A DNA stretch of 32,000 bases from Faecalibaculum rodentium (GTDB taxonomy: Bacteria; Bacillota_I; Bacilli_A; Erysipelotrichales; Erysipelotrichaceae): contig NZ_CP011391.1 of assembly GCF_001564455.1 (NCBI RefSeq), positions 2,400,001 to 2,432,000 on the forward strand, given 5' to 3'. Numbering within the stretch: position 1 is the first letter of the stretch; the number at the start of each line of letters is the position of its first letter. The position numbers and the translations under genes are program-made. Below, piece by piece: positions 1,666-30,115 of this stretch. Below the pieces are notes generated by a model that worked only from the letters and a program-made list of their open reading frames with translations, was not told the origin of the DNA and ran no database searches.

Positions 1666-1692
1666 CTAGCACTCGGACCTCTTGTCTGCTAA
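1666..1692 (-). promoter_or_regulatory. CIRCE-like HrcA operator (imperfect)
   Basis: Minus strand reads TTAGCAGAC-AAGAGGTCC-GAGTGCTAG against consensus TTAGCACTC-N9-GAGTGCTAA (7/9 and 8/9). It lies between the putative promoter and the hrcA start. Confidence 0.55.
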
Positions 1693-1693
1693 C

Positions 1694-1721
1694 AGAATAC
1701 CACTCTTTTTAGCAGAGTCAA
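1694..1721 (-). promoter_or_regulatory. Putative sigma-A promoter of hrcA-grpE-dnaK
   Basis: Minus strand: TTGACT (rc of 1716..1721), 16-nt spacer ending in TGg, then TATTCT (rc of 1694..1699), directly abutting CIRCE. Confidence 0.4.
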
Positions 1722-1895
1722 CAGTCGGATGCTATCTTCGGCAAATCCATTTTCCCATATCTCCATATACAAGGGATAATGATGTGACTGTCCGGCTGCC
1801 GATTTGCGATTGGATGGTCTGCAGGAGAAACCGCCATGATCCTTAGTGGTCTTTCAGATGCCGATGATGGGTGAAAAGGGCTGGTTTGCTCTCAG

Positions 1896-1935
1896 GCCGA
1901 TGGTGGCAGACAAGCCCGAATAGATAAGGGAGGTT
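1896..1935 (+). repeat. Copy E1 of recurrent motif GCCGATGGTGGC(A/T)GAC-N13-16-GGGAGGTT
   Basis: GCCGATGGTGGCAGAC (1896..1911) is identical to the rc of 28149..28164. GGGAGGTT at 1928..1935. Confidence 0.4.
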
Positions 1936-2023
1936 CGTTTACTGCTGTTGATGGAGGAAAGGCCGGCTGTCTGCTTCAGCTGCCTGAATCAGATGCCAGA
2001 CTGAGCGCCGGTCGTGGGTCATA

Positions 2024-2082
2024 GTACAAAAATAGGGTACAAATTTGATAAAATCAGGTAAGTTTGTACCCTATTTTTGTAC
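2024..2082. repeat. Perfect 20-bp inverted repeat hairpin (bidirectional terminator-like), stem built on TAGGGTACA
   Basis: GTACAAAAATAGGGTACAAA (2024..2043), 19-nt loop, TTTGTACCCTATTTTTGTAC (2063..2082). A/T tracts flank the GC core on both strands. Confidence 0.5.
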
Positions 2083-2756
2083 AAGGCACCGATACAAGAA
2101 ACGTATCCCACAGAAACCCAGATTCTGAGAGGCTTTATTCTTTGCGATCGATCCGCAATCTCTGTCTGTACTTTCTCCAGCAGCGGGAATGACAGCAATG
2201 AACAAAAGAGAATCGTCCGGAGCCTCGGACAGGAGTTGCGGAACATATTGGTTATTTCTGCGGAAAGAGAGACCAGATTAGCGAGGCTGAACATTGAGAT
2301 AACGGAACAGGAGAGCATTCTTTCCAGCCTGGATGGCAAGAAGGCAAGACTGAGGGCTGAACTGGAAGAGTACAGGAATATGGATTCATCCATCAGCCTG
2401 GTCTAATCCTTTGCTTGAAGAAAACTATTTCGAACCATGCTGGTATCGTTTAAACAGTGAGCAGCGGCAGGGAGTCACAAATGCCTGTCACAAACTTGAG
2501 AGCACCAGGAAGAAACTTTCAGAACTGGAATAAACCATTGTCAGGAACAATGCGATCATCACCAGGCAGAAACAGGCTTTCGATGTAAAAATGGATGAGT
2601 ACGCCAGACTGAAGACAGAGACAGACCGATACAAAGAGGTTCTGTCGGAGGCGGGATCACTGTCCGCTGTCTGGATAAATGAAGAGCCATTGTTTCATCT
2701 TTTATGGTTGCAGCGAAAGCAATGTGCAAAACAGGCATCTGACCTTAGAATAATTT
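2077..2756 (+). pseudogene. Decayed coiled-coil gene remnants (fragments in three frames), truncated by the IS3 element
   Basis: ORF 2077..2406 (…RLARLNIEITEQESILSSLDGKKARLRAELEEY), a second frame reading …YRLNSEQRQGVTNACHKLESTRKKLSELE* (about 2405..2530), and ORF 2591..2773 (MDEYARLKTETDRYKEVL…). No convincing start or SD. Confidence 0.3.
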
Positions 2757-2835
2757 ACGGACAGTCCATTTAGAGATTCTAAGAATACCGGTATCTATGT
2801 CATAGAACTACAATCACTATGAAAGAGGAAAATCT

Positions 2836-3135
2836 ATGGCAAAGAAACGTAAAACATTTACAGATGAATTCAAGCAGGATGCGGTTCAATTTTTGACTAA
2901 CCATCCAGAAATGACCGTTATAGAATGTGCTGAAACACTTGGTGTAGGCCGCAGCACCCTGGAAAGATGGAGGGCAGATTTCAACCGATCCGGTCTTTCA
3001 GCTGTGACAGCTCATAATAATGACAAGGAAGAAAAAGACCTTCTCAAAGAAAATGTCAGGCTTCAACGAGAACTCAGGGACTCACAGGAGGCTTTGAAGA
3101 TTCTAAAAAAAGCCATAAGCATTCTGGGAAACTGA
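2836..3135 (+). CDS. IS3-family transposase OrfA (HTH, 99 aa)
   Basis: SD AAGAGGA precedes ATG 2836. MAKKRKTFTDEFKQDAVQF…GVGRSTLERWRADF is the IS3/IS911-type HTH, followed by a leucine-zipper-like tail. Confidence 0.85.
   Translation: MAKKRKTFTDEFKQDAVQFLTNHPEMTVIECAETLGVGRSTLERWRADFNRSGLSAVTAHNNDKEEKDLLKENVRLQRELRDSQEALKILKKAISILGN
3105..3112 (+). promoter_or_regulatory. Programmed -1 ribosomal frameshift site A AAA AAA G
   Basis: A7G run. The zero frame reads cta aaa aaa gcc. A -1 slip continues agc cat aag… into the orfB frame (checked by hand). Confidence 0.7.
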
Positions 3136-4019
3136 AGCAGGTCGAATACGAACTTGTTGCCGAGGATCATAAAGCTGGAATCCAATTCTCGGTATCCAGG
3201 GTGCTTCATAAACTTGGTCTTTCAAGATCTGGCTATTACGACTATTTAAAGCGGAAACCCAGCCACCAGGAAAAGCGCAGGCATGATGTGAAAAAGGCCA
3301 TCCTTCAGATTTATGAAGACAGCCACGAAAACTACGGAGCGCCAAAAATCGCTAAAATCCTGAACTCAGGAGGGATCTCCATTACAGAAAGGACCGTTGG
3401 TGTTTATATGCGTCAAATGGGGATCCGAGCACAGTGGGTCAAGCCTCATACACAAACCACAATACGAAGTGATTTCAGTGGAAATCTGAAGAATCTTCTG
3501 GATAGAAACTTCTCTCCGGCTCACCCAAACTGCGTATGGTGCACAGATATCACCTATATCCACACAAAGCTGGACGGATTCGTTTACCTTGCCTGCATCA
3601 TGGATCTGTATTCCAGAAGGATCATTTCCTGGAAGCTTACAAAAACGCTGGACACAGGTCCAATTCTGAAATCGATCGAAGAAGCCAGAAAACGCCGGCC
3701 GTCCCAGGAACCGATAATGATTCATACGGACCGAGGAATCCACTATACCTGTGATCTGTACAGAAAACTGACCAGAGGAATGATTCGCAGTTATTCAGCA
3801 AAAGGAGTTCCGTATGACAACGCCTGTATTGAATCATTCCACTCCCTGATCAAGAGGGAATGGCTGAGCAGGTTCGATATACAGAACTACAGGCATGCAT
3901 ACCGACTGGTGAGTCAGTATATAGATGACTGGTACAACCCTGAACGGATACACAGCCACTGTGGATATATGTCCCCAGCAGAATATGAAGTAATGTTCCA
4001 AAGGACCAGCACTGACTGA
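3111..4019 (+). CDS. IS3-family transposase OrfB (DDE integrase domain), expressed as an OrfAB fusion by -1 frameshift
   Basis: The -1 frame is open from 3111 and in frame with ORF 3201..4019. DDE signature: WCTDITYI, HTDRGIHYT, YDNACIESFHSLIKREW. Confidence 0.85.
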   Translation, partial: SHKHSGKLKQVEYELVAEDHKAGIQFSVSRVLHKLGLSRSGYYDYLKRKPSHQEKRRHDVKKAILQIYEDSHENYGAPKIAKILNSGGISITERTVGVYMRQMGIRAQWVKPHTQTTIRSDFSGNLKNLLDRNFSPAHPNCVWCTDITYIHTKLDGFVYLACIMDLYSRRIISWKLTKTLDTGPILKSIEEARKRRPSQEPIMIHTDRGIHYTCDLYRKLTRGMIRSYSAKGVPYDNACIESFHSLIKREWLSRFDIQNYRHAYRLVSQYIDDWYNPERIHSHCGYMSPAEYEVMFQRTSTD

Positions 4020-4459
4020 GAAAGAATTCTGGAGCGCCCTTTACAGTGGGCTATCCCCTGGTAGACTGATGAGCCTTCAGCCAAGAACTGTCAGATATTG
4101 ACTCTTTGGATGAAGGCAAGAGAAAGGGGTCCAGGGGATAGTGGGCCCCACTGTCAAGGGAGGAAGCGGAGGAAATCTTTCGTAGAATTGGCAGTATCTG
4201 CCGACTCTCTAAAATCAGTGTCCGTTTTCTTGACATAGGACCAATCAGCCCGTGCCTGAAGGGTCCGGATGCCTGTTTTGATTATGTCCTCACCATGTAT
4301 CTCCCATTGTATTGCGTCTCTCGGTCGTCCACGACACCAGAAACAAGGTTACGTCTATCATCCGCGGACGATAGAGCTATCTGCCTGATTATCTGCTTTA
4401 TCTGCCTGAATCAGATCCGGGAAATTTTGCGCAGCCTCCTAAGCAACATCAGAAAACGC

Positions 4460-4508
4460 AAAAAAATAGGGTACAAACATTAAGGGTTTTCCTTAATATG
4501 TACCCTAT
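4460..4508 (-). terminator. Hairpin sharing the TAGGGTACA stem with 2024..2082; rho-independent terminator on the minus strand
   Basis: ATAGGGTACA (4466..4475)/TGTACCCTAT (4499..4508) plus ATTAAGG/CCTTAAT inner stem with a 5-nt loop. The A7 run 4460..4466 gives a T7 tail on the minus strand. Confidence 0.5.
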
Positions 4509-4692
4509 CACCTTTACCCGGCATGACTCTCATTCAGATTCTAAAGCAGGCAGATTGCCTGAGTTTCTGATTGTGGAAACTGCTCCACATCCAGCCACCG
4601 AAACATGTGCCAGACAATGCAGACCCTTCATCAGATGTATAATTTGCCTGCCCACCTTTGCAAACTCTGCAGATAGTTCGAATATTGAAGAC

Positions 4693-4730
4693 AACGCGCC
4701 AGGTCCTTCCGTCAAGGAAACTGGCGCGTT
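4693..4730 (-). terminator. GC-rich hairpin immediately after the stop of the small ORF
   Basis: AACGCGCCAG (4693..4702)/CTGGCGCGTT (4721..4730) with inner CCTT/AAGG pairing. Only a weak T tract on the minus strand. Confidence 0.4.
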
Positions 4731-4737
4731 ATTATAT

Positions 4738-4935
4738 TTATCTCATAAAACTTGGCTTTTTAAGTTTCGTGACATTTACCTTGCCTGTTTGGGCAGGCAT
4801 TTCAAGAGGCGATACATTATAATATGTACTTCTCTTATGAGCTGAAACACGAAAGCTATCAGGAAGCTTCGTATTCATGCTCCGCGAAATGTCATCTCTA
4901 ATCACCTTATTAATTACCAACTCTTCAAAATTCAT
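4738..4935 (-). CDS. Hypothetical small basic protein (65 aa), possible third gene of the AT-rich cassette
   Basis: ATG 4935..4933 lies 18 nt after the stop of the 821-aa gene, behind ACAGGAGA. A hairpin at 4693..4730 follows the stop. No recognisable motif. Confidence 0.35.
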   Translation of the reverse strand: MNFEELVINKVIRDDISRSMNTKLPDSFRVSAHKRSTYYNVSPLEMPAQTGKVNVTKLKKPSFMR

Positions 4936-4953
4936 TGTTCATCTCCTGTGATT

Positions 4954-7419
4954 CTATAATAATTCATTAAAACATTCTCTGTATTTATCAAAATACAGCT
5001 GGTTTACATATGAAAACAACTCGCTGGTTTTCAATGGACTACTGTTATGCATAGCAGACCGAAGCAAAAAGAGACTGGATTTTGGAGGGACTTTGTGAAA
5101 TGTTTTCTTCCACGCTTCCTGTTTCCTGCACTCCAACAAATATTGAAGAATTCGACCAAGATCTCCAACAAGAAACTTGTTTTCGATATTATACCAATCA
5201 CTGATTTCCGTGTGAAGTGAATTGATTATCCTCATCTGCATCTCTGTGATATAACTGATATCATTTTTCCTGGAATCCTTCATGTGTGGCTCATTAGAAA
5301 GCAGAGAATCAAAATCTGATTGAGTATAGTCTCTGGGATCCACAATTCCGTTATCAAGTATCAGCAATATGATTGCTATTCTAATACGGCTGTTGATCGA
5401 CATATCTCCGTTCTTTGGACTTTTGAACATTGCCAAAAGATACTCTTGAGGTGTCATCTTTAAAAGCTCTGCAGCAGATAGATCTGCATAGGCCTCTCTC
5501 ATGATCTCCAATGTTCGAAGTGTTCGATGATGAGCCTGATCCAATAAATCTGTCAGATTTGAAAACGCGGAAGCGTATACAATTGCAAAAATCTCAACTG
5601 GTATTGCACGCTGGTCGGATGCCATCATCTCATGAATAAATACATAATCATTCAATAATGATTTATATAAGTTTTCCTCTGATTTCAGCCCAATACCTTT
5701 GATCTCAGCTTCCATTCTGCTCGCTGTAAGATCTGAATCCCCAATAGATTCAACTTTGTTTTTCCATCTTCCTTTTTCACTGAACGACCAATCATCAAAA
5801 CTCTTCATTAACAAATCTTTCAGCCTGATAAAATCATCTTGTGTACGGTCTTTGGCTAATATATTTGCAAAGTCATCCAGAGAAAACTTTTCTCCCTCAA
5901 GAAAAGATACATAAAGATATGTTAAATTATCAAAATATGAATCAAGCAGGATTTTTGCCCGGGCTTTTCTTCTGCGGATTTTATCCCCGGCAAAATGGGA
6001 GATCTCGTGAGCCGCCGTGAACAAACCGTCACTCAATTTTAGTGTTGAACCGAAATTAACAGTATATATATACAACTCTCGTATGGTGTCATCAGATTGA
6101 AACGGTACTTTACAAATAGATGAATGATTGCTGATAGTCGGCGCAGAAAACACAAGGAATTCTTTACTCGGCTTGTCTTCCTTGCTGAGTGCTTCAATCA
6201 TGGTTTCCGCCAATACACTACTGAATCCAATCAAGGTTGCTGGTGCAATCCCATCAAACTCCCAATGGCTGTCTTTTCTTCGAAGCATGGACTGTGCATT
6301 GCAAAGCAGTAAATCCTGGAACGCTTTCGATGTAATGTCTATATTCTGTATAAGATCCTGATAAGCCTCTTCATCATTTTTCTGAATTATTTGCTGTCTT
6401 ATACTGTCAAAATCTGGTAACTTCCGCAATACAGATGACAGCAGCAAAGAAATTGGGTTTAACAATCTATTTTCTTCCTGTTGCCGTATGTACTGATATG
6501 CTGATTTGAAATAGGCATGATTCTTTGGCTCTACAGCATTATTACTCTCTACTCCTGATTTTCGAGAATTACCTACTCTATATGGCAGATTTCGATATAT
6601 ATCTTCACAAGCACTCCATGGGCTATATAACTTGACGTTAAACTGCTCAAATTGCTTAATCACTTTTTCAAAAACCGCAAAGAAGTTAGCTGCTCGTTTA
6701 TTCGTAAAGGGAACAACAACATCTATCGCTCCTGCTGTACTGGATATCCTGGAGTCTCCCTGAACATTGAGCAGGCTACCACCTGATATCGTTGTCTCAA
6801 ATCTGTTTTCAACAGAAAAGAAATCCCACATATCAGAGTTTTGCCTTGAAATATCAGACAGCTCATCTTTGTTTCTGATTTTGATTTTTAACTCGCCGGA
6901 CAATAACTCATCTGACTGTAGTTTGTCGGTTCCCGGGTTGATCATAACTATGGTATACATGTTCGAAACAGAGACACCAAATCTGCGCAGGCGCTTGATT
7001 TCCGATAAATATCTCCTCCACGCTTTTTCGTATGTATCTCCTGCCTGAAACAGAACCAGATTGTAAGTATCAAGGCTTTGAAACCAGCAATTATTTCTCC
7101 TGGCCCTTCCATTTGTCAATTCTGAGACAGCCTTCGGTATGGATGGAATGCTATTCCCAACATTTTCCGAGATAATCACGAACCCAACGAGGAGATAGGG
7201 AGACTGATCAATCCGCTTCCAAAACTGCTCCGGATCTTTCTTTTTATAGAATACCAGTGAATTAGACTGTGCTGAATCATTTATATTTATATCAGGTAAT
7301 TTATCATGAGCTTTCAGTAATTGCGGGAAGTGGTTGCGTGTCAATGACCTGAAAGAACCTAATACAGCGTCATTATTTGTCCCCCCATTCGGCTTCGCCA
7401 ATACGAGTCGGTAAATCAT
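4954..7419 (-). CDS. Hypothetical 821-aa cytosolic protein with an HExxH…ExxAD metallopeptidase-like signature (protein B)
   Basis: Long uninterrupted ORF. ATG 7419..7417 with SD AAAGAGG. ATGA overlap with the upstream gene. HEISH is encoded by rc of 5995..6009 and EAYAD by rc of 5482..5496. No signal peptide or TM segment. Confidence 0.85.
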   Translation of the reverse strand: MIYRLVLAKPNGGTNNDAVLGSFRSLTRNHFPQLLKAHDKLPDININDSAQSNSLVFYKKKDPEQFWKRIDQSPYLLVGFVIISENVGNSIPSIPKAVSELTNGRARRNNCWFQSLDTYNLVLFQAGDTYEKAWRRYLSEIKRLRRFGVSVSNMYTIVMINPGTDKLQSDELLSGELKIKIRNKDELSDISRQNSDMWDFFSVENRFETTISGGSLLNVQGDSRISSTAGAIDVVVPFTNKRAANFFAVFEKVIKQFEQFNVKLYSPWSACEDIYRNLPYRVGNSRKSGVESNNAVEPKNHAYFKSAYQYIRQQEENRLLNPISLLLSSVLRKLPDFDSIRQQIIQKNDEEAYQDLIQNIDITSKAFQDLLLCNAQSMLRRKDSHWEFDGIAPATLIGFSSVLAETMIEALSKEDKPSKEFLVFSAPTISNHSSICKVPFQSDDTIRELYIYTVNFGSTLKLSDGLFTAAHEISHFAGDKIRRRKARAKILLDSYFDNLTYLYVSFLEGEKFSLDDFANILAKDRTQDDFIRLKDLLMKSFDDWSFSEKGRWKNKVESIGDSDLTASRMEAEIKGIGLKSEENLYKSLLNDYVFIHEMMASDQRAIPVEIFAIVYASAFSNLTDLLDQAHHRTLRTLEIMREAYADLSAAELLKMTPQEYLLAMFKSPKNGDMSINSRIRIAIILLILDNGIVDPRDYTQSDFDSLLSNEPHMKDSRKNDISYITEMQMRIINSLHTEISDWYNIENKFLVGDLGRILQYLLECRKQEAWKKTFHKVPPKSSLFLLRSAMHNSSPLKTSELFSYVNQLYFDKYRECFNELL

Positions 7420-8717
7420 ACTAAGCCTCTTTCTAAGATGGCAATCAATTCAGATGGATAGCGACAAAAGAGTGTGGCATTGAATACTGCATTTCTGACC
7501 TGTTTGCCATACTCTTCTCCCTTCTTAGGAAACGTAATGCTGTTCCAGTCAACAAAGGACTTTGTGTTTAAGATATACCTGCAGGCATATTCATATACGT
7601 TCCGGATATGTTCAAAACTGGCAGCATCAGAATCTTTACTATCATAGAGTCCTGATTCCATATACCGCTGAACCGTTTGCTGCATCTCTTTATCTGGATA
7701 TTCGAGTTCAGCCAAAATGATAGGAGTCTTTACATTTTTCAGATTTGCTTCATCAAATAATTGACTGACATACAAAGCCGTAAATCCATGTAAGGCCGCA
7801 ATGTATGACCGGGCTACCTTTTCCCTCGAAGCTGTACCATCAGTAACAGTTTTCCCCAGCATGTCCAGATAACAGGTTAATAATGCTGATGCTTTTCCGG
7901 TACCATTTTTCTGTTCATGAAAAAACTGCAGCATAAGAAGAAAGAAAACCTGATCTGTAAATTTACGAGTAGATAGAGATTTGTCACAGGCCTTCAATTG
8001 CTCTGAGAACAGCCGTTTGAGAAAAATCTCTGATTCTCGTCTACCTCTTGGGGAGCATTCAAAACAGTTGAAAATAGTCGCCTCTGCCACATTATTCATC
8101 AATTCGATTGCAGAAGCCGGATCCTTCAACTTCTGCAATTCTCCATTCCAGTCAGTTTCTTCCGAGTTTTTTTGCAGATCTAACTCAATCTGTTTTAATA
8201 CATAACTGAGAATAATCGCTTTGTACTCTAATTCTTCATCATTGGACTTTAGAAACCGTTTCAACACCGAATAATCTACAGATAGTTTTTGAGGACTTAT
8301 CATTGAAACCAAATGGATTCTCTTCCTTGGTTCCACCTGTTGGTCAGCCGTTTCATTTTTTGTAATTTGCAGACCATTAGTCCTATTCTTTTTATTCCCA
8401 CGCTGTCTATATGTGTCCGGATTCATAGTCTTTACAGTGATAATGATGACAATCAGCACAACGGCTATATCAAGCAAGAGATGTAATAACGGATACTGTT
8501 CCGATATCATTACAAATCCCGGAATACCAGGTGTTTCTTCGTAATTCGTCATAATGATATACGACCCAAGAAGACCAAGAAACACTCCGATAACCAACAT
8601 TTGCATCCAGCTTCTGCGATTATAAATAGTATTTATGTGCTGAAAAACAGGAATACCCAGTATCTCGTCTTTCATGGCAATGATAATACCTATTAAAACG
8701 CCAAATACTATTTCCAT
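7416..8717 (-). CDS. Hypothetical 433-aa membrane protein: 3 N-terminal TM helices plus a ~330-aa helical cytoplasmic domain (protein A)
   Basis: ATG 8717..8715 behind SD AAGGAG (rc of 8722..8727). Hydrophobic segments at residues 1-15, 38-56 and 77-95. The rest is charged and helical with no motif I recognise. Confidence 0.85.
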   Translation of the reverse strand: MEIVFGVLIGIIIAMKDEILGIPVFQHINTIYNRRSWMQMLVIGVFLGLLGSYIIMTNYEETPGIPGFVMISEQYPLLHLLLDIAVVLIVIIITVKTMNPDTYRQRGNKKNRTNGLQITKNETADQQVEPRKRIHLVSMISPQKLSVDYSVLKRFLKSNDEELEYKAIILSYVLKQIELDLQKNSEETDWNGELQKLKDPASAIELMNNVAEATIFNCFECSPRGRRESEIFLKRLFSEQLKACDKSLSTRKFTDQVFFLLMLQFFHEQKNGTGKASALLTCYLDMLGKTVTDGTASREKVARSYIAALHGFTALYVSQLFDEANLKNVKTPIILAELEYPDKEMQQTVQRYMESGLYDSKDSDAASFEHIRNVYEYACRYILNTKSFVDWNSITFPKKGEEYGKQVRNAVFNATLFCRYPSELIAILERGLV

Positions 8718-8791
8718 AAAACTCCTTACTACATCTTCAAACGCAAAACCGTATAATATCTGTTTTATTGCGTTTTAGATTTTTGAAAATT

Positions 8792-8816
8792 GGGATTTCA
8801 GAAGCTCTGAAATCCC
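8792..8816 (-). terminator. Rho-independent terminator ending the pilus operon
   Basis: GGGATTTCAGA (8792..8802)/TCTGAAATCCC (8806..8816). On the minus strand it is followed by AATTTTCAAAAATC, 37 nt after the stop at 8853. Confidence 0.55.
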
Positions 8817-8852
8817 AAATCAGACATAAGAATTAAAAACCAATATACGAAC

Positions 8853-9506
8853 TCAAGCTTCCTTCTTCCGCCTCCACAGCACCACCAGTGCCAGTACGCT
8901 CAGGGAAATCCCTGCCAGCATCAGGAACTGATCCTGCTGCAGCTCAGCCGCCGTCTTCGCCTTTGACGGTTTCGTCGGTTTCTTTCTGTACGAGTCCGTC
9001 TTGCCAAAGGAAGTCGCATCATAGCTGCCGGACTTATCCGGGATCGTTGCCAGATAGGAAGTCATGACATACCCGGCTTCCCCCAGCTCAGTCTGACGGA
9101 CATAGTAGATCCCCAGGGGCAGATCGCTGAATGTCACCGTGTTGGATTCCCCGATGGTCCTCGTAGCATAGGGCTGCAGGCCTTCCTGATCGATGTAGTC
9201 ACCCACAAACTCAATCAGAGGATGAGACTCATCCGCATCCCAGTAGTTCAGATCCTGCTCCGTAAAGTGGAACCGGATTCCTTCAAACCCCGGTGCATTC
9301 TGATACTCATATGGACCATCCTCTGATACCCCAATGGTCGCCACCTGCCAGATGGCATAGGATGATCCCTCCAGCGGGTATTTTCCATTGAATGAAATCG
9401 TCAGGGATCCTCGCTCGTTCAAATCAATATCCTGCGCTGCAACGGGCATCGCCGCAAACAGCGGGATCAGCAGAAGGATCCATAACTTTCTCAAAATTCC
9501 CTTCAT
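8853..9506 (-). CDS. Small pilin-like/Cna-B-like surface protein (217 aa) with a C-terminal TM anchor but no LPXTG
   Basis: SD GAGGGAAA. Signal peptide MKGILRKLWILLLIPLFAAMPVAAQD. E-box-like YYVRQTELGEAGY. C-terminal hydrophobic stretch plus RRKKEA tail. Last gene of the pilus operon. Confidence 0.75.
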   Translation of the reverse strand: MKGILRKLWILLLIPLFAAMPVAAQDIDLNERGSLTISFNGKYPLEGSSYAIWQVATIGVSEDGPYEYQNAPGFEGIRFHFTEQDLNYWDADESHPLIEFVGDYIDQEGLQPYATRTIGESNTVTFSDLPLGIYYVRQTELGEAGYVMTSYLATIPDKSGSYDATSFGKTDSYRKKPTKPSKAKTAAELQQDQFLMLAGISLSVLALVVLWRRKKEA

Positions 9507-9523
9507 AAGTTTCCCTCAACTTT

Positions 9524-10351
9524 CTAACCTTTCTTTTTCCGTCCTCTGGCCATTACCCAGACAAAGAGTCCGATCAGGACAGGAACGGCAATGAACAGCG
9601 CCACAAGCTTCGAGTCAATGAGCATGGCCTCATTTCGTGTATTGATGAAATCATCCGGCAGGTTGTCCACACGGTGACCGCGTACCATTAGACGATGCGA
9701 ATTGATACCGTATGGCGTACATGTCATCAAAGTGACATAATCTTTTCCATCTTCTATCTCCAGCTTTGAATAATCTGTTGGCAGCACAATGGAAATCTGA
9801 TCTACCTGGTATGTCATAAGATTATCCAGTGACTGAATCATGAAATAATCCCCTTCCTCCAAATCATCAAGATCTGTAAGGAGCTTGGCAGATGGCAGTC
9901 CCCTGTGCCCTGAAATTACTGAATGAGTTCCCTGACCCCCGATCGGCAGAGAGGAACCCTCAATATGACCCAGAGCAGTATTTAAAACTGAATCATCCGT
10001 TCCATGATAGATGGGCAGGTTTACACGCAAAGACGGAATTTTCAGGATTCCCATCATTCCATCTTCCGTAATATTCAATGTCTCCTCATATTTTTTGTGC
10101 AATGCATCCGAAGGATTGAACCGGTAAGTCTCCTTAGAAAGCAAAGAATTGTATTCCTTTGCTCCCTCAATCATCTGATCATATTCCTCCGGACTCATGC
10201 GATTTACCGTATCCTCATAGGATACAACCGCCCTGGATGCATACATTGAATTCACCCAGTCCGAAACTGTCGGATACAACAGCAGGGACAACCCTGCCGT
10301 GAAAATGATTATGAGGAGAATCGTGGTGAGATTCTTTCTTATAAACTTCAT
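9524..10351 (-). CDS. srtC: Class C (pilin-polymerising) sortase
   Basis: N- and C-terminal TM anchors, VISGHRGLP His motif, TLMTCTPYGINSHRLMVRGHRV (TLxTC plus Arg). Sits next to the pilin genes. Confidence 0.9.
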   Translation of the reverse strand: MKFIRKNLTTILLIIIFTAGLSLLLYPTVSDWVNSMYASRAVVSYEDTVNRMSPEEYDQMIEGAKEYNSLLSKETYRFNPSDALHKKYEETLNITEDGMMGILKIPSLRVNLPIYHGTDDSVLNTALGHIEGSSLPIGGQGTHSVISGHRGLPSAKLLTDLDDLEEGDYFMIQSLDNLMTYQVDQISIVLPTDYSKLEIEDGKDYVTLMTCTPYGINSHRLMVRGHRVDNLPDDFINTRNEAMLIDSKLVALFIAVPVLIGLFVWVMARGRKKKG

Positions 10352-10370
10352 TGCAGAGTTCTCCCTGCCA

Positions 10371-10401
10371 TTGAATCAGGAAGGCAGTCTTCCTGATTCA
10401 A
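10371..10401 (-). promoter_or_regulatory. Perfect 13-bp stem hairpin between the major pilin and sortase genes (attenuator or mRNA-stability element)
   Basis: TTGAATCAGGAAG (10371..10383), loop GCAGT, CTTCCTGATTCAA (10389..10401). No U tract afterwards on the minus strand. Confidence 0.45.
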
Positions 10402-10429
10402 CGACAGTAAATCAACTTGTCAAAAGAGC

Positions 10430-11899
10430 TTATGCAGCCATTCTCTTGCGAACAACGAATAGTACTGCTGCACCAGCAACCATCAGGCCGCCAATCGTGT
10501 ACAGAGCCGTTGTACCCATACCACCTGTGGAAGGCAGAGTCGCACCACCCTTGGTGTTCTCGATGTTTGCCTTCACTTCATTCATAGAAGGATTCGAAAC
10601 ATTAGTATCATTAAGAGTTACATTAAACTGCTGACGGGATGTCATCAGGTTATAACCAGCCGGTGCTTTGGTTTCCTGCAGCCAGTAGGAACCTTCAGGC
10701 AGACCAGTCACGTGGAACTGACCATCAGTTCCAGAAGTCAGAGTGGTTACAGAACTGTCACCATCTACAGGAGCCTGTACATAACGATATGTATCTCCAT
10801 CCTTGATAAAACTCAGTTTTGTTCCTTCAGTGGCTTCTGTATAAATCTCGAATTCTGCACCAGCAAGAGTGGTAGCCTCGTCGTTTGCATCCACCTTTGT
10901 GAAGTCAGCTTTTCCAAGGAAGATTTTTACAAAGTCATTGACTGTATCGTTATCTCCCGGCTTAACTACGACAGTGTTCTGTACGGATCCTGCAGAAACT
11001 GCAGCATCCGTTACTGTTGCCCGGTAAGTAATCGTTACAGAAGTGGAAGCTGTTAATCTCTGCAGATAAGTATCTTTGAAAGCAACAGTGATTTTCTGGC
11101 CATCTACAGAGACTGAATAATCTTTGTCATTTGTCAATGTGCTAGGAGTTATAGAGATAGAATCAGCAACAAGTTCCAGACCCGTTCCCATCGTATCGGT
11201 GATGGTGAAAGATTTCAGACCAGGTTCAATGTTTGTGGTAATCTCAAAGGATTTGATTTCTCCAACATAAGCGGTTGAGTGATCGGCATCTACTTGAGTA
11301 TTTTCAGGATCATTAACCTTCTTATCAACATTAGTCGGTTTGTTCTTATCGGTAATTGTCACGCTGGGAGTTGCTGTATTAATGCTGGCAATCGTTCCTG
11401 CATCTGTTTTTACATAGTAATAACCATAAGGAACATCTGTAATGGACAATGCACCTGCTGTATCTGCCGTCACAGATTTATGATCGAATACTTTATTCAA
11501 ATCATCAACTTCTTTCGAATTCAGGAATGTAGCAATATCTTGACCTGTGATTCCAGTCTTAACTGCTACGTTATACTTGCCATTTGCAGTAGCCTGGAAA
11601 TTAAATAATTCAGGATTTGCTGAAGCAAAGAATGTTTTCTGCTCTTCTGTCGCAATATAAGAAGCAGTTCTTTTATCATCAAACTCTACGCCAGGGTTGA
11701 TTACATCATGAGTCTGTTCTGTAGCGCTTACCTCAAAAATCTGATAGGCAGTATACGTTTTTCCCTTCTGGGCATTGGCAATGGTAATGGTTCCCTCGCC
11801 GGCGGCAAGTTCTGCAGCATTGACTGTTGTCAGGCCAACACCAGCCACCATAGTAGCTGCTGCGGCAACAGAGAACATCTTTTTAAAATTTTTGTTCAT
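10430..11899 (-). CDS. Major (backbone) pilin, LPXTG-anchored (489 aa)
   Basis: Start moved to ATG 11899 (MNKNFKKMFSVAAAATMVAGVGLTTVNA signal peptide). E-box YWLQETKAPAGY. LPSTG (rc of 10523..10537) plus hydrophobic tail and RKR. Confidence 0.85.
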   Translation of the reverse strand: MNKNFKKMFSVAAAATMVAGVGLTTVNAAELAAGEGTITIANAQKGKTYTAYQIFEVSATEQTHDVINPGVEFDDKRTASYIATEEQKTFFASANPELFNFQATANGKYNVAVKTGITGQDIATFLNSKEVDDLNKVFDHKSVTADTAGALSITDVPYGYYYVKTDAGTIASINTATPSVTITDKNKPTNVDKKVNDPENTQVDADHSTAYVGEIKSFEITTNIEPGLKSFTITDTMGTGLELVADSISITPSTLTNDKDYSVSVDGQKITVAFKDTYLQRLTASTSVTITYRATVTDAAVSAGSVQNTVVVKPGDNDTVNDFVKIFLGKADFTKVDANDEATTLAGAEFEIYTEATEGTKLSFIKDGDTYRYVQAPVDGDSSVTTLTSGTDGQFHVTGLPEGSYWLQETKAPAGYNLMTSRQQFNVTLNDTNVSNPSMNEVKANIENTKGGATLPSTGGMGTTALYTIGGLMVAGAAVLFVVRKRMAA

Positions 11900-11987
11900 A
11901 ATTTCCTTTCTTTTCCTTTCCGGTATCAAATTCCCGGATTTTTTATTTATCGAATACAAATCCCCTTAAGGTCAGGGGCGGAGGCTT

Positions 11988-14900
11988 TTACTTCAACCCC
12001 CTTTCTTTGCCCCTAAGCCTCTTTTTGTATCCGTACATGAGCAGGCTACCGGCAATCATTGCCGCGCCTGCGGATGTAAGAAGTTGTGTACCGGATCCAC
12101 CGGTGTTGGGCAGCGGTTTACCTGCCTCATTTTTAATAGTAAGCGTTACACGTCTTCCATTAATTCCAACTGATACATACCTATCAGAATCAAATTCACC
12201 TGGTTTTCCATTACCATCCAGAATTTCAACAGTAGTATCCTTGCCATTGAATGTAATCTTGAAGATCACATTGTCCTGCAGATATCCGGCAGGCGGTGTT
12301 TTCTCCTTCAGGTAATAAACTTTTCCGTTTTGAACTCGTCCAATATCTATATGACCTGCATTCTCTCCGGAACCGCTCGTCGTATATTCTCTAAGCGGAT
12401 CTTTCGTCAGGTCATCATAGATTTCGAATACGGCACCATTCAGTTTTTCACTACCATCACTGGACACTTTGAATACATCCAGCAAAGCAGCATCAGTCTG
12501 AACAACAGGTTTCTGATATGGAGTAATCTCTATAACTCCGCTACCGGGATTTGTTGCAAGCCATTGTGTTTCGGATTCTTTATATGGATTCTTATATCGG
12601 TAATTCAGAGCAGAACTTTCATTTGAGAAGAATCCTCCGCGGTTGCTCGAAGTTGTGTTGCCAGATGGCCGGTAATCACTGTTGGAATCTCCAGATTCGT
12701 TGTATGTCATCTGCTGATTATCAAACTTCTCATACGCTTCGGCAGTTGTTTCTACATTGAAACTGAGTTCATATCTGTAGGCAGGATCCATGGACCAGTC
12801 CGGATTGAATTTCAGCTGAATTGTCTTGGATTTCAGATCAACAAACACGCCACCAGTACTGCCAAACACCTGAGCATTTGTCCAGTTTTTGACATTCACA
12901 TTCGTGCCAATCGTATCCCTGTTCTCAAAGCTGAAATTCGAAGTTTCATTCGGTAATGCCTGTTTCGGACTTACTTCACTCTTATTCAGGGAAGGTGTCT
13001 GATAGATGATGACTGGTTCAGGTGCTGCAGCTCCTGTTGGAATTGCCTTGACAATGATAGTTGTGTTTACTAAATCGAAATTGACATTTTGAGAAAGTGT
13101 ATCCTGAATCACCAAATTGTCACAGCGTGGGCCAATGCACATCAGATATAGCTGTTCCTGCAGAGAAGTTACATCTGTTGCGCTGCCACAAAATCCATCT
13201 TTAGAGGGCAAATCTGGGACATCTATTGTTTTCCCTTCATAAGTAAATTTTCCTACTCCATTTGGATTTTTGGCCAAGAATACGGTCGGAGTTGTATCGT
13301 AAGCAATTGTACTTAATGTAAATTGCCTAGTTGAATCTGCATATAATGCATTGATCTGGCTTACGACTCCCTTTGCATCAACCATATTGGTCTCATTGCT
13401 ACCACCGATTTCATACCTATTGCCATCATTATGTACAGTAGGTACGCCGTCACTTAGGAAGATTACATATGTGGAATAACCTCTTGGCGTCTGATCAATG
13501 ACGCCTGAAAGCTTTAAAAGTGCATCCTCATAGTTCGTGCCTCCCAAGTCCCCACTCTGAAGCGATGTACCATTCAACTTGTTCTTAACACTGCTAAAAT
13601 CCTTATATACGGTATTATCTATAGTTGCAAGAGACGCAAAAGTAATCAATCGAACCTGGTTCATAGAATTCAACTTGTAGAAATCCTGTAAAACACCAGT
13701 ATTACCAACCAAAGTATTTTTAAGATTCGACCAGCGAGACGTACTTGTGTTACCCAGATTTTCATTCATACTCGCTGAAGTATCCAGAACCAGAATCAAA
13801 TTGACAGGGTTCTCATCTGCAATTGGTCCGGCATCCAGATACAAGCGGTACGAATCAGAAAGGTTCTTATCTGATCCATATCCCGCATCAGGATTCACGA
13901 CAGAATCTCCCAGATAATCAATCATTTTCGAATGCGGGATTTCCTTTTCCGCCATGGGAATGGTTCCGGAACCAAATGATCCTGAAGCAACCTTGGTGTT
14001 TGTAATGGTGTACTGGATATCCAGTTTCTCCTGCGCAACCACTTCATATATGTGAGCTCTATGTTGAGAGGAATCCGCCCTAAAACTTGAAGTATACCAC
14101 AAATGATCAGAACCGTAGTCAATATAATAGTTCTCAGACCTAAGCCCATCATCATTAACAATGAATGACGATCTGTTATTAGGAGTACTCGTAAGTCTCA
14201 AAACACCATAATTAATCCTTAAATAATAGTTGTTATTACTCAACGCGAAGCCCCCATTATGGCTGGCAGCCGTCCACAGGATCGAGTCAGTAAGCAAACC
14301 ATCATAAGTATTTGTTGAATAGCTGCTGCCATTTCTTCCCAGGGCCCTGTTTTGGTCATCGTTGAGAATCACGTACTGCTTGCCCGCTTCCAGCTGAGAT
14401 GCAGGTTGTGATTTAACTGTTCGGAAATTATCATCTACAACTTCCTGCCGCTGGTAGGAAGCGAGATACCCATCAAGGGTTTCTGTAACGTAGAACTTTG
14501 TATAGTCCGCAGTCTGATCCGGGTATTTCTCTTTGAACTTAGTCAGAAGTTCGCTGTAACTGATTTCCCGTTTCCAGGTTCTTGATCCGGAATCATAGCT
14601 GATCTCGGTTTCCATGATGACCGGATTGGGATCTACCATACCCTCCAGCAGGTCCGGCTGATAGGTTTCAGGATTGTAGTCTCCATAGCGGATTTGGACA
14701 GGAACAGAAGTAACTTCACTTTCAAGAGGCTGCTTCGTCCATTTCTTTTCAATGATGAATGAGTTCGGCGTCACATCTGTTTCCGCAGCTGCGTTAATTC
14801 CATCCGTCTCTTCATTGGCCGTCTTCAGAACCACATCTCCTGAATAGATAGTTTCTGTACCATCTGAAGCTGTTTCTTCTGAACCAGTCATCACTTCTTC

Positions 14901-16265
14901 CAGTTTCTGAACAGGAACAAGAGGTTTCAGCTTGTAGGCCGCTCCCTCAGTGTTTCCACCGCCTGTATAAGAATCTGTGCTTACCTCCTGTGTAATCCCT
15001 ACACGCCAGTGGTGAGTCAGATTGTCGTCTGTAACCAGAATCGTCAGTTTATCGGAAGTTTCACCCTCCAGATCTTTCCAGGCTTCAGAATCTGCGTTTT
15101 CTGTATCGTTGTACTGCCACTGATAATGCAGGATTTCACCATCCTCGAATCCCTGAGGAACAGCCGTCAATGTGATTTCGTCACCAGTCTGTACTTTATT
15201 GTCAGCGCCCTCGATGGAAACCGTTTTTGTCTGTTGGTCAGATTCGGAATCCTCAGGATTGTCCTCTCCGGAACCATCACCTGGAGTCTCAGTGTCTGCA
15301 CCATTCTCGGATGGTGCTTTTTCTGAGATCTGCAGAGAACCGATCAGCTGTGCAGCAGAGCGGTCAATTACCTTTACAGATTTTTCGACATCTCCCGCAT
15401 ATATTTTTGCTTTCTTTGATGCTTCATCATAACTTTCCAGGATACCGGACTTTCTCTTGCCTTCATCATCCTGATAGAACACCACATCCCCGGCCTTCGC
15501 CTCTTTGGCATCCTTGACCAGATCTTCGGACCGGGCAGCGATCCATTCATCGGCATTTGACTTCCAGCCGGCTTTCGCATTGGCATACTTCAGAACCCAG
15601 CCGGTGAAGGCATTGTTCCAGTCACCATATCGGTCACCAGCCCATTCCCCGTACCTGGTAAAGCCGTCTTCCGTGCCGTCATCGTTGACCCGGAAGTTCT
15701 TGTCCGATTCCTTGTATCCCTTCTGGCTTTCCGCCACCTGCAAAACTCGTTCCCGGACATCTTCTTTCAGATCAGCCGGAACCGTCTTTTTCCAGTCCTC
15801 TTCCGTTTCCACGGCTTCCGGATCGGATTCGCATTGTCTGGAATGGGTGTGTTCCTCTTTCCCACACATCGGTTCGCTGCTCTTTTTGCAGTCGTCGGTA
15901 TGGATATGTCCCTCCGTGCCTTCCGACTCATTCTTATCGCAGATCAGAACCTGTTCTGTCAGGTAACAGGTCTCATCATGCACATGGAGTTCGCTTTCTT
16001 CCTGTCCGCAGATCAGTGTCTGCATTTCCTGGTAACAGGATTCGTCATGGACATGACCTTCCGTACTGTCAGATTCTTCCTGACCGCAAAGATATTCCCC
16101 GCTTCTGTAACACTCTTCTATATGCGTGTGCTCTTCCTTGCCGCAGTGTGTCTCGCTGGAAAGCGTCACGGCTGGCAGGATCAGCGCATAGGTCGTGCAG
16201 AACACGACGACCGCTGCCAGAGCACCCACCAGTTTTTTCCGTATATGGCGGTGTCTCTTCATCAT
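11988..16265 (-). CDS. Pilus tip adhesin (1425 aa): Cys/His repeats, CHAP-like domain, vWA domain with MIDAS, Cna-B-like domain, LPNTG
   Basis: ATG 16265 behind GAAAGGAAA. N-terminal anchor/signal. VLDTSAS MIDAS motif (rc of 13770..13784). YYLKEKTPPAGY E-box. LPNTG (rc of 12099..12113) plus a TM and basic tail. Confidence 0.85.
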   Translation of the reverse strand: MMKRHRHIRKKLVGALAAVVVFCTTYALILPAVTLSSETHCGKEEHTHIEECYRSGEYLCGQEESDSTEGHVHDESCYQEMQTLICGQEESELHVHDETCYLTEQVLICDKNESEGTEGHIHTDDCKKSSEPMCGKEEHTHSRQCESDPEAVETEEDWKKTVPADLKEDVRERVLQVAESQKGYKESDKNFRVNDDGTEDGFTRYGEWAGDRYGDWNNAFTGWVLKYANAKAGWKSNADEWIAARSEDLVKDAKEAKAGDVVFYQDDEGKRKSGILESYDEASKKAKIYAGDVEKSVKVIDRSAAQLIGSLQISEKAPSENGADTETPGDGSGEDNPEDSESDQQTKTVSIEGADNKVQTGDEITLTAVPQGFEDGEILHYQWQYNDTENADSEAWKDLEGETSDKLTILVTDDNLTHHWRVGITQEVSTDSYTGGGNTEGAAYKLKPLVPVQKLEEVMTGSEETASDGTETIYSGDVVLKTANEETDGINAAAETDVTPNSFIIEKKWTKQPLESEVTSVPVQIRYGDYNPETYQPDLLEGMVDPNPVIMETEISYDSGSRTWKREISYSELLTKFKEKYPDQTADYTKFYVTETLDGYLASYQRQEVVDDNFRTVKSQPASQLEAGKQYVILNDDQNRALGRNGSSYSTNTYDGLLTDSILWTAASHNGGFALSNNNYYLRINYGVLRLTSTPNNRSSFIVNDDGLRSENYYIDYGSDHLWYTSSFRADSSQHRAHIYEVVAQEKLDIQYTITNTKVASGSFGSGTIPMAEKEIPHSKMIDYLGDSVVNPDAGYGSDKNLSDSYRLYLDAGPIADENPVNLILVLDTSASMNENLGNTSTSRWSNLKNTLVGNTGVLQDFYKLNSMNQVRLITFASLATIDNTVYKDFSSVKNKLNGTSLQSGDLGGTNYEDALLKLSGVIDQTPRGYSTYVIFLSDGVPTVHNDGNRYEIGGSNETNMVDAKGVVSQINALYADSTRQFTLSTIAYDTTPTVFLAKNPNGVGKFTYEGKTIDVPDLPSKDGFCGSATDVTSLQEQLYLMCIGPRCDNLVIQDTLSQNVNFDLVNTTIIVKAIPTGAAAPEPVIIYQTPSLNKSEVSPKQALPNETSNFSFENRDTIGTNVNVKNWTNAQVFGSTGGVFVDLKSKTIQLKFNPDWSMDPAYRYELSFNVETTAEAYEKFDNQQMTYNESGDSNSDYRPSGNTTSSNRGGFFSNESSALNYRYKNPYKESETQWLATNPGSGVIEITPYQKPVVQTDAALLDVFKVSSDGSEKLNGAVFEIYDDLTKDPLREYTTSGSGENAGHIDIGRVQNGKVYYLKEKTPPAGYLQDNVIFKITFNGKDTTVEILDGNGKPGEFDSDRYVSVGINGRRVTLTIKNEAGKPLPNTGGSGTQLLTSAGAAMIAGSLLMYGYKKRLRGKERGLK

Positions 16266-16277
16266 CAAATTTCCTTT

Positions 16278-16871
16278 CTACAAAGTCCCTGCCGCATCAA
16301 GAGGCCAGAGCCGCCAGACCAGCTTGCCGACAATCTGTTCTTCGGCAATGGGCCCGATGGCCTTGGTTCTGGAGTCCAGGGAAACGCTCCGGTGGTCCCC
16401 CATCACAAACCACCGGTCTTCCGGCACCTGGTAGGGGTAGTCGATGTTCGTTTCACCCAGTGCTTTTTCCTCCAGATACGGTTCCTCCAGTTCCTTGCCG
16501 TTGACGTACACAGTGCCGTCGTCCGCAAGATCCACCCAGTCTCCCGGTCCGGCGATGACGCGCTTGACGAGGAGCTTGTTGTTGTAATAGAAGGCAATGA
16601 CATCCCCCGGCTGGAATTCTGTGGTTTTCACCGTGGCGACAATGTTGCCTTCGCTGAGGGTGGGTGTCATGGAGTTTCCGTAGATGCGCAGGACCGGGAG
16701 CCACAGGGTTGCGGCGAGAATCGCCAGTGCGGCGACGACCACGAGCACCGCAACGGTGCTTTTGAGTGTGTCCCGGAACTTTTTCTGGTACAAAATCCGT
16801 TTCTTTTCTTTCTTCCAGTCCGCCGAGTCAAACTGATCGGCCGATGGCATCTCTTTCTTATGGCTGCTCAT
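16278..16871 (-). CDS. Type I signal peptidase (197 aa), catalytic Ser/Lys retained
   Basis: Start is ATG 16871 (ATGA overlap with the upstream ORF). TM anchor, GNSMTPT (Ser box), LVKRVIAGPGD (Lys box), GDHRSVSLDSR. Confidence 0.85.
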   Translation of the reverse strand: MSSHKKEMPSADQFDSADWKKEKKRILYQKKFRDTLKSTVAVLVVVAALAILAATLWLPVLRIYGNSMTPTLSEGNIVATVKTTEFQPGDVIAFYYNNKLLVKRVIAGPGDWVDLADDGTVYVNGKELEEPYLEEKALGETNIDYPYQVPEDRWFVMGDHRSVSLDSRTKAIGPIAEEQIVGKLVWRLWPLDAAGTL

Positions 16872-17128
16872 GGAGCGGCCCTTTCTGTCTGTTGTCTGAT
16901 CTCGTTGAGGTAATCCTCGGCTGCCTGCTGGGCGGCTTCGAACACGCCGTTGAGCTGCAGGGCGGCCTGCGCGATGTTCCCGGCTTTCCGGCACTCGATG
17001 CGCCGGCTTTCGAGCTCGTCGCTGAGTTTCTGCACGAGTGTCTTCAGCCGTTCGTTTTCTTCTGTACTTTCAATGAGAAGATCCACGAGCTGAAGACGGG
17101 ACAGCTTTTTCAATTCCTTTTCTTTCAT
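16868..17128 (-). CDS. Small coiled-coil protein (86 aa), function unknown
   Basis: ATG 17128. MKEKELKKLSRLQLVDLLIESTEENERLKTL…AGNIAQAALQLNGVFEAAQQAAEDYL. Stop overlaps the signal peptidase start (ATGA). SD is weak. Confidence 0.55.
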   Translation of the reverse strand: MKEKELKKLSRLQLVDLLIESTEENERLKTLVQKLSDELESRRIECRKAGNIAQAALQLNGVFEAAQQAAEDYLNEIRQQTERAAP

Positions 17129-29798: not shown

Positions 29799-30115
29799 GC
29801 CCCGGGGGTTCCCTTTTTGTTTTCGGGCAGCGAGGCTCGCGTGGCGGTGAAGCCAGGGTGGGGCCGCTGATGGTGGGGAGCGGGCAGCGGGTGGGGCGGG
29901 AGAGCCATCATCGACGTAGGGATGAACATGGGCGCCACCATCGGCAGGCGAGGAACGGTGGTCTGACTTGGGGCGCAGAGTCACGCGGTGTTTCGGTGTC
30001 TGGCGGTATCGACGGCTGTCGGGGCGGAACAGTGTTCTTATTTTTCGGGAATCCTTCTCAAGTGTTTCGTTTCGCCGGATAATACCAGGGAAGAAAGAAA
30101 GTAGAGGGACTGGGA

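Follow-up and report, generated by a model that had tools for sequence, protein, structure and literature searches.

The three-gene cassette A-B-C of Faecalibaculum rodentium, located within a 32,000-nucleotide stretch (hereafter the window) of contig NZ_CP011391.1 (assembly GCF_001564455.1, positions 2,400,001 to 2,432,000 of the forward strand), is a real, undescribed module whose central gene, B, encodes a divergent member of a sparse, unnamed new family of predicted gluzincin-like metalloproteases. For the catalytic domain of B a known superfamily is the most likely home; what is new is the family, with its architecture and its partnerships. We tentatively favor the reading that A-B-C is a horizontally acquired accessory conflict module in which B, once activated by a trigger, would cleave A or another membrane target and thereby bring about arrest or exclusion. 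Such a conflict role is circumstantially supported, that is, plausible but unproven.

A preliminary description of this DNA had pointed to an HExxH…ExxAD signature in B, and the signature is real. HEISH occupies residues 471-475 (6009..5995) and EAYAD residues 642-646 (5496..5482), and HExxH together with ExxxD is invariant in all eight aligned members of the family; on that basis we assign B, as a predicted zincin-like metalloprotease, to a new family. Gluzincins such as thermolysin (E166/D170) and neprilysin (ENIAD) share this layout of an HExxH motif with ExxxD on a helix further along the chain. HExxH by itself arises by chance in 1.4% of shuffled B sequences. The invariant positions, in B numbering, are P393, H471, E472, H475, G478, R482, R484, R487, D528, E642, D646, L653, E659, Y760, and C764, and the family consensus reads AHE[IL][SA]H[FY]VG..R.RE.R for the first motif and, after a further 140-200 residues, [RK]E.[FY][AS]D for the second. 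The relatives that define this consensus are distant. Exhaustive phmmer comparison of B with 1.84 billion cluster representatives returned a single distant relative (P0032, E 3.9e-5), word-indexed homolog searches returned F. rodentium clusters only, and a two-sequence profile failed to recover P0032. Motif-guided scans of genomes and metagenomes yielded further relatives of 790-932 residues, which form at least five additional clades; identity is 20-28%, both to B and among clades, around the central core. Members were found in gut Firmicutes metagenomes.

Placed beside the gluzincins of MEROPS clan MA(E) (M4 thermolysin, M13 neprilysin, M48/M56), B likewise has its HExxH motif on a predicted helix after a small β-sheet and, on a predicted downstream helix, a Glu followed four residues on by an Asp, all five residues being invariant in the family. 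The differences are as marked: B matches no MA family significantly in either sequence or fold, carries a helical insertion of 140-200 residues between the HExxH and Glu helices, belongs to a family of much larger proteins (~800-930 residues) with additional conserved N-terminal α/β and C-terminal helical regions, and, unlike the M48/M56 enzymes, is soluble, with no hydrophobic segments. Searches of Pfam, NCBIfam, and the Protein Data Bank (PDB) gave no significant match for any family member. The best subthreshold Pfam matches, one member each, were MPTase-PolyVal (E 0.054, in one of seven members) and Peptidase_M48 (E 0.11); the only functional Pfam hints for the family are to zincins, and they are nonsignificant. 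PDB sequence searches with single proteins and with profiles of the whole family and of the core were negative, as the matches to RNase L (E 0.2) and Srr1 (E ~0.01) were judged to be chance. A relation to ImmA/IrrE (M78) found no footing either, as B has no Peptidase_M78/DUF955 match and the cassette contains no helix-turn-helix (HTH) gene.

Structure prediction with AlphaFold2 gave a predicted local distance difference test score (pLDDT) of 34 for B from the single sequence and a mean of 45 from an eight-sequence alignment, with the core at 50-81. The modeled core runs, in order, through a helix, a three-stranded sheet, the HExxH helix, and a long helix bearing the Glu, an order of elements that appears zincin-like, in a model that is only marginal. 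The only subthreshold Foldseek matches were to ferredoxin-like/ABM domains of ~100 residues (E ~0.05, probability 0.99); at the low confidence of this model, they may correspond to a predicted N-terminal β-α-β-β-α-β unit at residues ~63-160 of B (7419..6940).

The products of A, B, and C are identical to the F. rodentium hypothetical proteins WP_067559796, WP_067559794, and WP_067559792, respectively. The preliminary description could name no family for the cassette proteins, and this was borne out, with zero matches for all three in Pfam, NCBIfam, PHROGs, PADLOC, and PDB sequences. Hydrophobic segments of A at residues 1-25, 36-59, and 73-100 correspond to three N-terminal transmembrane (TM) helices (residues ~1-100, window 8418..8717), which are followed by a KR-rich stretch and a soluble domain of ~330 residues; because of that KR-rich stretch after the third helix (positive-inside rule), this C-terminal domain is predicted to be cytoplasmic. 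Homologs of A and C outside F. rodentium were not detectable. C is called as a gene in other F. rodentium strains and is unrelated to the small open reading frames (ORFs) beside other B-family members.

The three genes are arranged as a single unit (Table 1). The ORF positions, the overlap of the A stop and the B start in ATGA, the gap of 18 nucleotides (nt) between the B stop and the C start, and both Shine-Dalgarno sites were all verified from the sequence, as were three hairpins, each about 5 standard deviations more stable than dinucleotide shuffles. The terminator of the sortase-pilus operon is the upstream boundary of the cassette, and the canonical terminator downstream of C is likely the 3′ end of the A-B-C transcription unit. 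A consensus promoter scan did not list the candidate -10 box in the leader.

Table 1. Features of the A-B-C cassette and its surroundings (window coordinates) and of gene pairs at loci of B relatives (coordinates of each locus).
Feature	Coordinates	Strand	Remarks
Gene A	8717..7416	minus	433-residue membrane protein; ORF list
Gene B	7419..4954	minus	821-residue soluble protein; ORF list
Predicted zincin-like core of B	5350..6234	minus	residues ~396-690; sole part conserved across all clades
Gene C	4935..4738	minus	65-residue basic ORF; putative coding gene
Pilus-operon terminator hairpin	8816..8792	minus	13-bp stem, dG -18.3 kcal/mol, z -5.1, then UUUU
Cassette leader	8718..8791	minus	candidate -10 box and Shine-Dalgarno of A
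Candidate -10 box TATTAT	8758..8753	minus	read from sequence; putative promoter role
Shine-Dalgarno of A, AAGGAG	8727..8722	minus	read directly from sequence
Shine-Dalgarno of C, AGGAG	4947..4943	minus	read from sequence
Hairpin directly 3′ of C stop	4730..4693	minus	dG -26.3 kcal/mol, z -5.4, no U tract
Canonical intrinsic terminator	4508..4460	minus	long stem and U7, dG -23.8 kcal/mol, z -5.8
IS3 element	~2745..4243		HTH_Tnp_1 and rve; ~500 bp from C
IS3 orfA	2836..3135		HTH_Tnp_1
IS3 orfB	3201..4019		rve
Multi-TM partner gene, L010	1226..2464		
Multi-TM partner gene, L011	7716..8969		
DACNH-DAC and B-family pair, L013	3085..7437		
DACNH-DAC and B-family pair, L021	8555..12643		
DACNH-DAC and B-family pair, L019	2445..6625		
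DACNH-DAC and B-family pair, L026	7317..11479		

The cassette is compositionally foreign. GC content is 0.36-0.39 in A, B, and C versus 0.57-0.59 in hrcA and grpE, and the GC content at third codon positions (GC3) is 0.38, 0.39, and 0.35 in A, B, and C, respectively, versus 0.72 in hrcA and 0.67 in grpE, in agreement with the low GC seen in the preliminary description. Pilin and sortase genes nearby are likewise low (GC3 0.35-0.49), so the compositional island extends beyond the cassette. The 217-residue gene that abuts the cassette is host-like (GC3 0.65), which places a sharp break in composition at ~8850. The pilus operon itself (8853..16994) is a mosaic of this gene and a signal peptidase gene at GC3 0.65-0.69 and of the sortase, pilin, and VWA tip pilin genes at the low values. 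An IS3 element had been described as directly beside the unit; the adjacency holds. The element is absent (empty site) in strains L001-L004 and L009, which are otherwise 99.96-100% identical, and is thus a recent, strain-specific insertion, neither a part nor a boundary of the unit; as a cassette boundary or vehicle we therefore reject it. Filled and empty sites show no obvious target-site duplication, and contigs of other strains break within the element. No mobile-element remnants were found near the cassette.

The genomic context of the B relatives bears most directly on function. Each relative is tightly linked to a gene for a protein of ~410-490 residues, so that a two-gene layout recurs in which such a partner is coupled to a B-family gene of ~800-900 codons; the partners are unrelated to one another. 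The family is carried on mobilizable elements or in variable loci, and the partner differs by clade. In loci L010 and L011 it is a multi-TM protein of 412-417 residues (A′), encoded with a 4-nt overlap with the B-family gene (B′) and unrelated to A by BLAST and hhalign; this protein has a strongly conserved motif, GWIYSERDKLTLGKSQ.DMIH..YG.GYAGS, and no family match. The L011 pair is flanked by NikA/MobC and by ImpB, relaxase, and integrase genes, with DUF3846/3848/3849 adjacent. At locus L020, a KAP NTPase gene (7708..9300) lies 445 nt downstream of a 932-residue B-family gene and matches the PADLOC candidate PDC-S20 (E 1.9e-60); it is the only match in PADLOC-DB v2, in which A, B, C, and six other B-family members are unmatched. 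Upstream at L020 are an HTH gene and a Ser/Thr-kinase fragment.

This company of transfer genes raises the possibility, to our minds an unlikely one, that B is a counter-defense or establishment factor of mobile elements, which conjugative or mobilizable elements would deliver or express early and which would degrade defense proteins of the recipient, the F. rodentium copy being a chromosomal leftover of such an element. Degradation of recipient defense proteins has been proposed for the metalloprotease domain of ArdC, and the B relatives, like ArdC/MPTase-PolyVal proteins, carry an HExxH domain near relaxase genes on mobile elements. The modules of L011 and L021-25 lie within a few kilobases of NikA/MobC and relaxase genes, the ImpB/UmuC and DUF3846/3848/3849 neighbors are typical of transfer-associated regions, and the faint hint in the one member (E 0.054) is to MPTase-PolyVal, the zincin of polyvalent/ArdC-type proteins. 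That hint, however, is nonsignificant, and Pfam searches detected no ArdC-like single-stranded DNA-binding domain; the B family lacks the ArdC N-terminal domain and differs from these proteins in size and partners. Moreover, the F. rodentium cassette has no flanking mobile-element remnants, and known anti-restriction proteins are not typically paired with a membrane protein or a cyclase.

Two further clades are linked to DACNH-DAC cyclases, in human- and mouse-gut Firmicutes. The most abundant clade (L013-17/L021-25; >350 index blocks listed) combines a DACNH-DAC protein, a 61-residue ORF, and B′, and in L021-25 is found on an element with relaxase, NikA, and serine recombinase genes at different chromosomal insertion sites. 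In L013, 432 nt (4366..4797) separate the DAC gene from B′, and this interval holds the 61-residue ORF; a GC-rich hairpin and T run, resembling a terminator or attenuator, stand just before the B′ start. In the L019/L026-29 clade of mouse-gut Lachnospiraceae, the B-family gene (B″) instead overlaps the downstream DACNH-DAC gene by 4 nt, within a polysaccharide locus encoding a glycosyltransferase, RgpF, and an epimerase. The paired cyclases contain DGA and have RHN or RYN instead of RHR. DACNG-DACNH-DAC proteins (CdaG/DS-2C) have been reported as defense-associated cyclases (bioRxiv 10.64898/2026.08.10.743927, 10.64898/2026.08.10.743972), and neither report mentions a protease partner for them. 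The linkage of two B-relative clades to DACNH-DAC (by a 4-nt overlap in one and over ~430 nt in the other) recalls these DAC defense-signaling systems (CdaG/DS-2C; Panoptoo, PanDA); in the described systems, however, the cyclase partners are 2TM-beta, Cap15-like, or CD-NTase proteins and not a large HExxH protein, and the F. rodentium cassette lacks a cyclase, A being unrelated to DAC or DACNH. A as a cryptic cyclase or a homolog of A′ was rejected, since BLAST and hhalign show no relation to A′ or the DAC partners (hhalign probability 0.9% against the DAC-partner profile).

The surroundings in F. rodentium and in L019/L026-29 also invite the view, which we regard as quite unlikely, that the cassette is a cell-envelope signaling or quality-control module in which a membrane-anchored partner and a regulatory protease, coupled in other clades to a c-di-AMP-type cyclase, would tune surface structures such as pili or wall polysaccharides. 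The cassette is immediately downstream of the sortase-pilus operon in every contig read, L019/L026-29 sits inside the glycosyltransferase, RgpF, and epimerase locus, and cyclic di-AMP (c-di-AMP) regulates wall and osmotic homeostasis (10.64898/2026.08.10.743927). Against this stand the strong terminator and the GC3 break (0.65 to 0.38) between the pilus operon and the cassette, the placement of other clades on mobilizable elements without surface genes, and the repeated inactivation of B in strains that retain the pilus genes. Given the terminator, the break in GC3, and the lack of pilus genes near any relative, we rejected the idea that the cassette is functionally tied to the pilus operon.

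Other F. rodentium contigs invariably show the cassette with the SpaA-type pilus operon on one side and hrcA-grpE-dnaK-dnaJ on the other. The preliminary description placed it in an accessory hotspot and looked to defense islands for its homologs; among the 21 contigs read with the flanking pilus gene, none lacks the cassette, and hence no hotspot-type variability is seen, and the F. rodentium locus, set between pilus and housekeeping genes, is not a recognizable defense island. B is disrupted by several independent alleles (window 6071..6072 and 6282; proteins P0004-P0012), which comprise the nonsense allele R380* (CGA>TGA, a C>T change), the loss of 2 bp from a (TA)n run at about codon 450, a frameshift close to codon 276, and an allele with a replaced C terminus (WP_217947068). 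Among natural strains, no allele of A was found to be clearly disrupted. Repeated, independent loss of function fits a dispensable, possibly costly gene, and these natural B-null alleles provide ready-made genetics in a mouse commensal.

The same alleles could be taken to mean that the cassette is inert or decaying foreign DNA that hitchhiked with the low-GC pilus island and is under no selection in F. rodentium, a proposal that we consider improbable. At least four independent disrupting B alleles occur in a nearly clonal population, all six cassette variants across the strain loci are nonsynonymous or disruptive (four missense, two disruptive, zero synonymous), and A and C are orphans. In most strains, however, A, B, and C are all intact across 4 kb of AT-rich DNA, in which stops arise easily; the catalytic motif residues of B are intact; and the pilus operon is similarly rich in nonsynonymous variants (six missense, three synonymous). 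As the pilus operon shares this excess, the population is too young for selection to be read from it, and with strains ≥99.9% identical, a test of the dN/dS type (ratio of nonsynonymous to synonymous substitution rates) is uninformative.

In the conflict-module reading that we prefer, B would be the center of the operon, a large cytosolic metalloprotease of the new gluzincin-like family with its catalytic HExxH at 471-475, E642 as the third zinc ligand, and D646 as the helper Asp. In gut Firmicutes, the B family would serve as a modular conflict gene with a clade-specific, tightly linked partner, in F. rodentium protein A, whose three TM helices would hold a cytoplasmic domain facing B. The N-terminal α/β and helical regions of B would restrain the protease in the absence of an invader-derived or signaling cue. 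Once the cue arrives, cleavage might fall on the cytosolic domain of A, so that a TM module able to damage the membrane is released or activated, or on a cellular or invader protein, with A as membrane anchor; as a result, growth would stop or the invading element would be excluded, and C would act as a small cotranscribed accessory or regulatory peptide. The structure and coupling of the genes, the foreign composition, the conserved zincin signature, the mobile-element, DAC, and KAP contexts of the family, and the exchange of partners are observed; proteolysis by B, its trigger and substrate, and a defense outcome are what we infer. The HExxH protein Lit of prophage e14 had been offered as a precedent. 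Lit has ~300 residues, is prophage-borne, and acts alone on EF-Tu, while B has 821 residues, is not on a prophage, and is coupled to a membrane protein; nothing links B to the Lit family (no match at E ≤1 in Pfam, PADLOC, or PHROGs), so any likeness, that of an HExxH protein with a proposed part in phage exclusion, would be one of functional analogy only.

Several observations weigh against a conflict role. B has no significant similarity to any peptidase or defense family, and its model is of low confidence, with nothing below E 1e-3 in Foldseek searches of PDB and BFVD. No relatives were found in phage, plasmid, or viral collections (INPHARED and PLSDB, searched by tblastn with A, B, and B′, and IMG/VR, which was scanned). 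As an orphan, A makes the A-B linkage known from one clonal species only. The cassette is present in 21 of the 21 contigs noted above, the strains vary too little for selection on its genes to be shown, and its neighbors in F. rodentium are housekeeping and pilus genes, not defense genes. The two surface-structure contexts (the pilus here and the polysaccharide locus in L026-29) suggest an envelope role instead.

A more specific variant, which we hold to be highly improbable, would make the N-terminal α/β region of B a receptor for DAC-made cyclic dinucleotides and B itself a signal-gated immune protease effector, with a c-di-AMP guard version in F. rodentium. Clades with their own DACNH-DAC would then constitute a self-contained cyclase-protease pathway, and the cyclase-less F. 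rodentium version would watch the housekeeping c-di-AMP pool in the manner of a Panoptes-like guard; perturbation of that pool by a phage sponge or nuclease would cause B to fire and to cleave A, with collapse of the membrane.

Should B prove to be an active protease, it would be the founding member of a new metallopeptidase family, one that Pfam, NCBIfam, PADLOC, and PDB all lack and that is so far restricted to gut Firmicutes and moves on mobilizable elements. The swapping of partners between membrane proteins and DACNH-DAC cyclases is a pattern of conflict systems, and the family would be a candidate partner for orphan CdaG-like cyclases, whose effectors are an open question in both 2026 preprints.

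Nowhere in the window were Rfam families or tRNAs found. The segments 1673..2744 and 4244..4737, which together form the C-hrcA spacer (~1.56 kb in strains free of the IS element), contain no convincing gene, and the GC content of this spacer (~0.47) is between the cassette and host values. Finally, the 299-residue minus-strand ORF at 30038..30937, in the region labeled hisJ in the preliminary description, has no Pfam match, and an overlapping plus-strand ORF of 276 residues (30116..30946) may be the real gene there.

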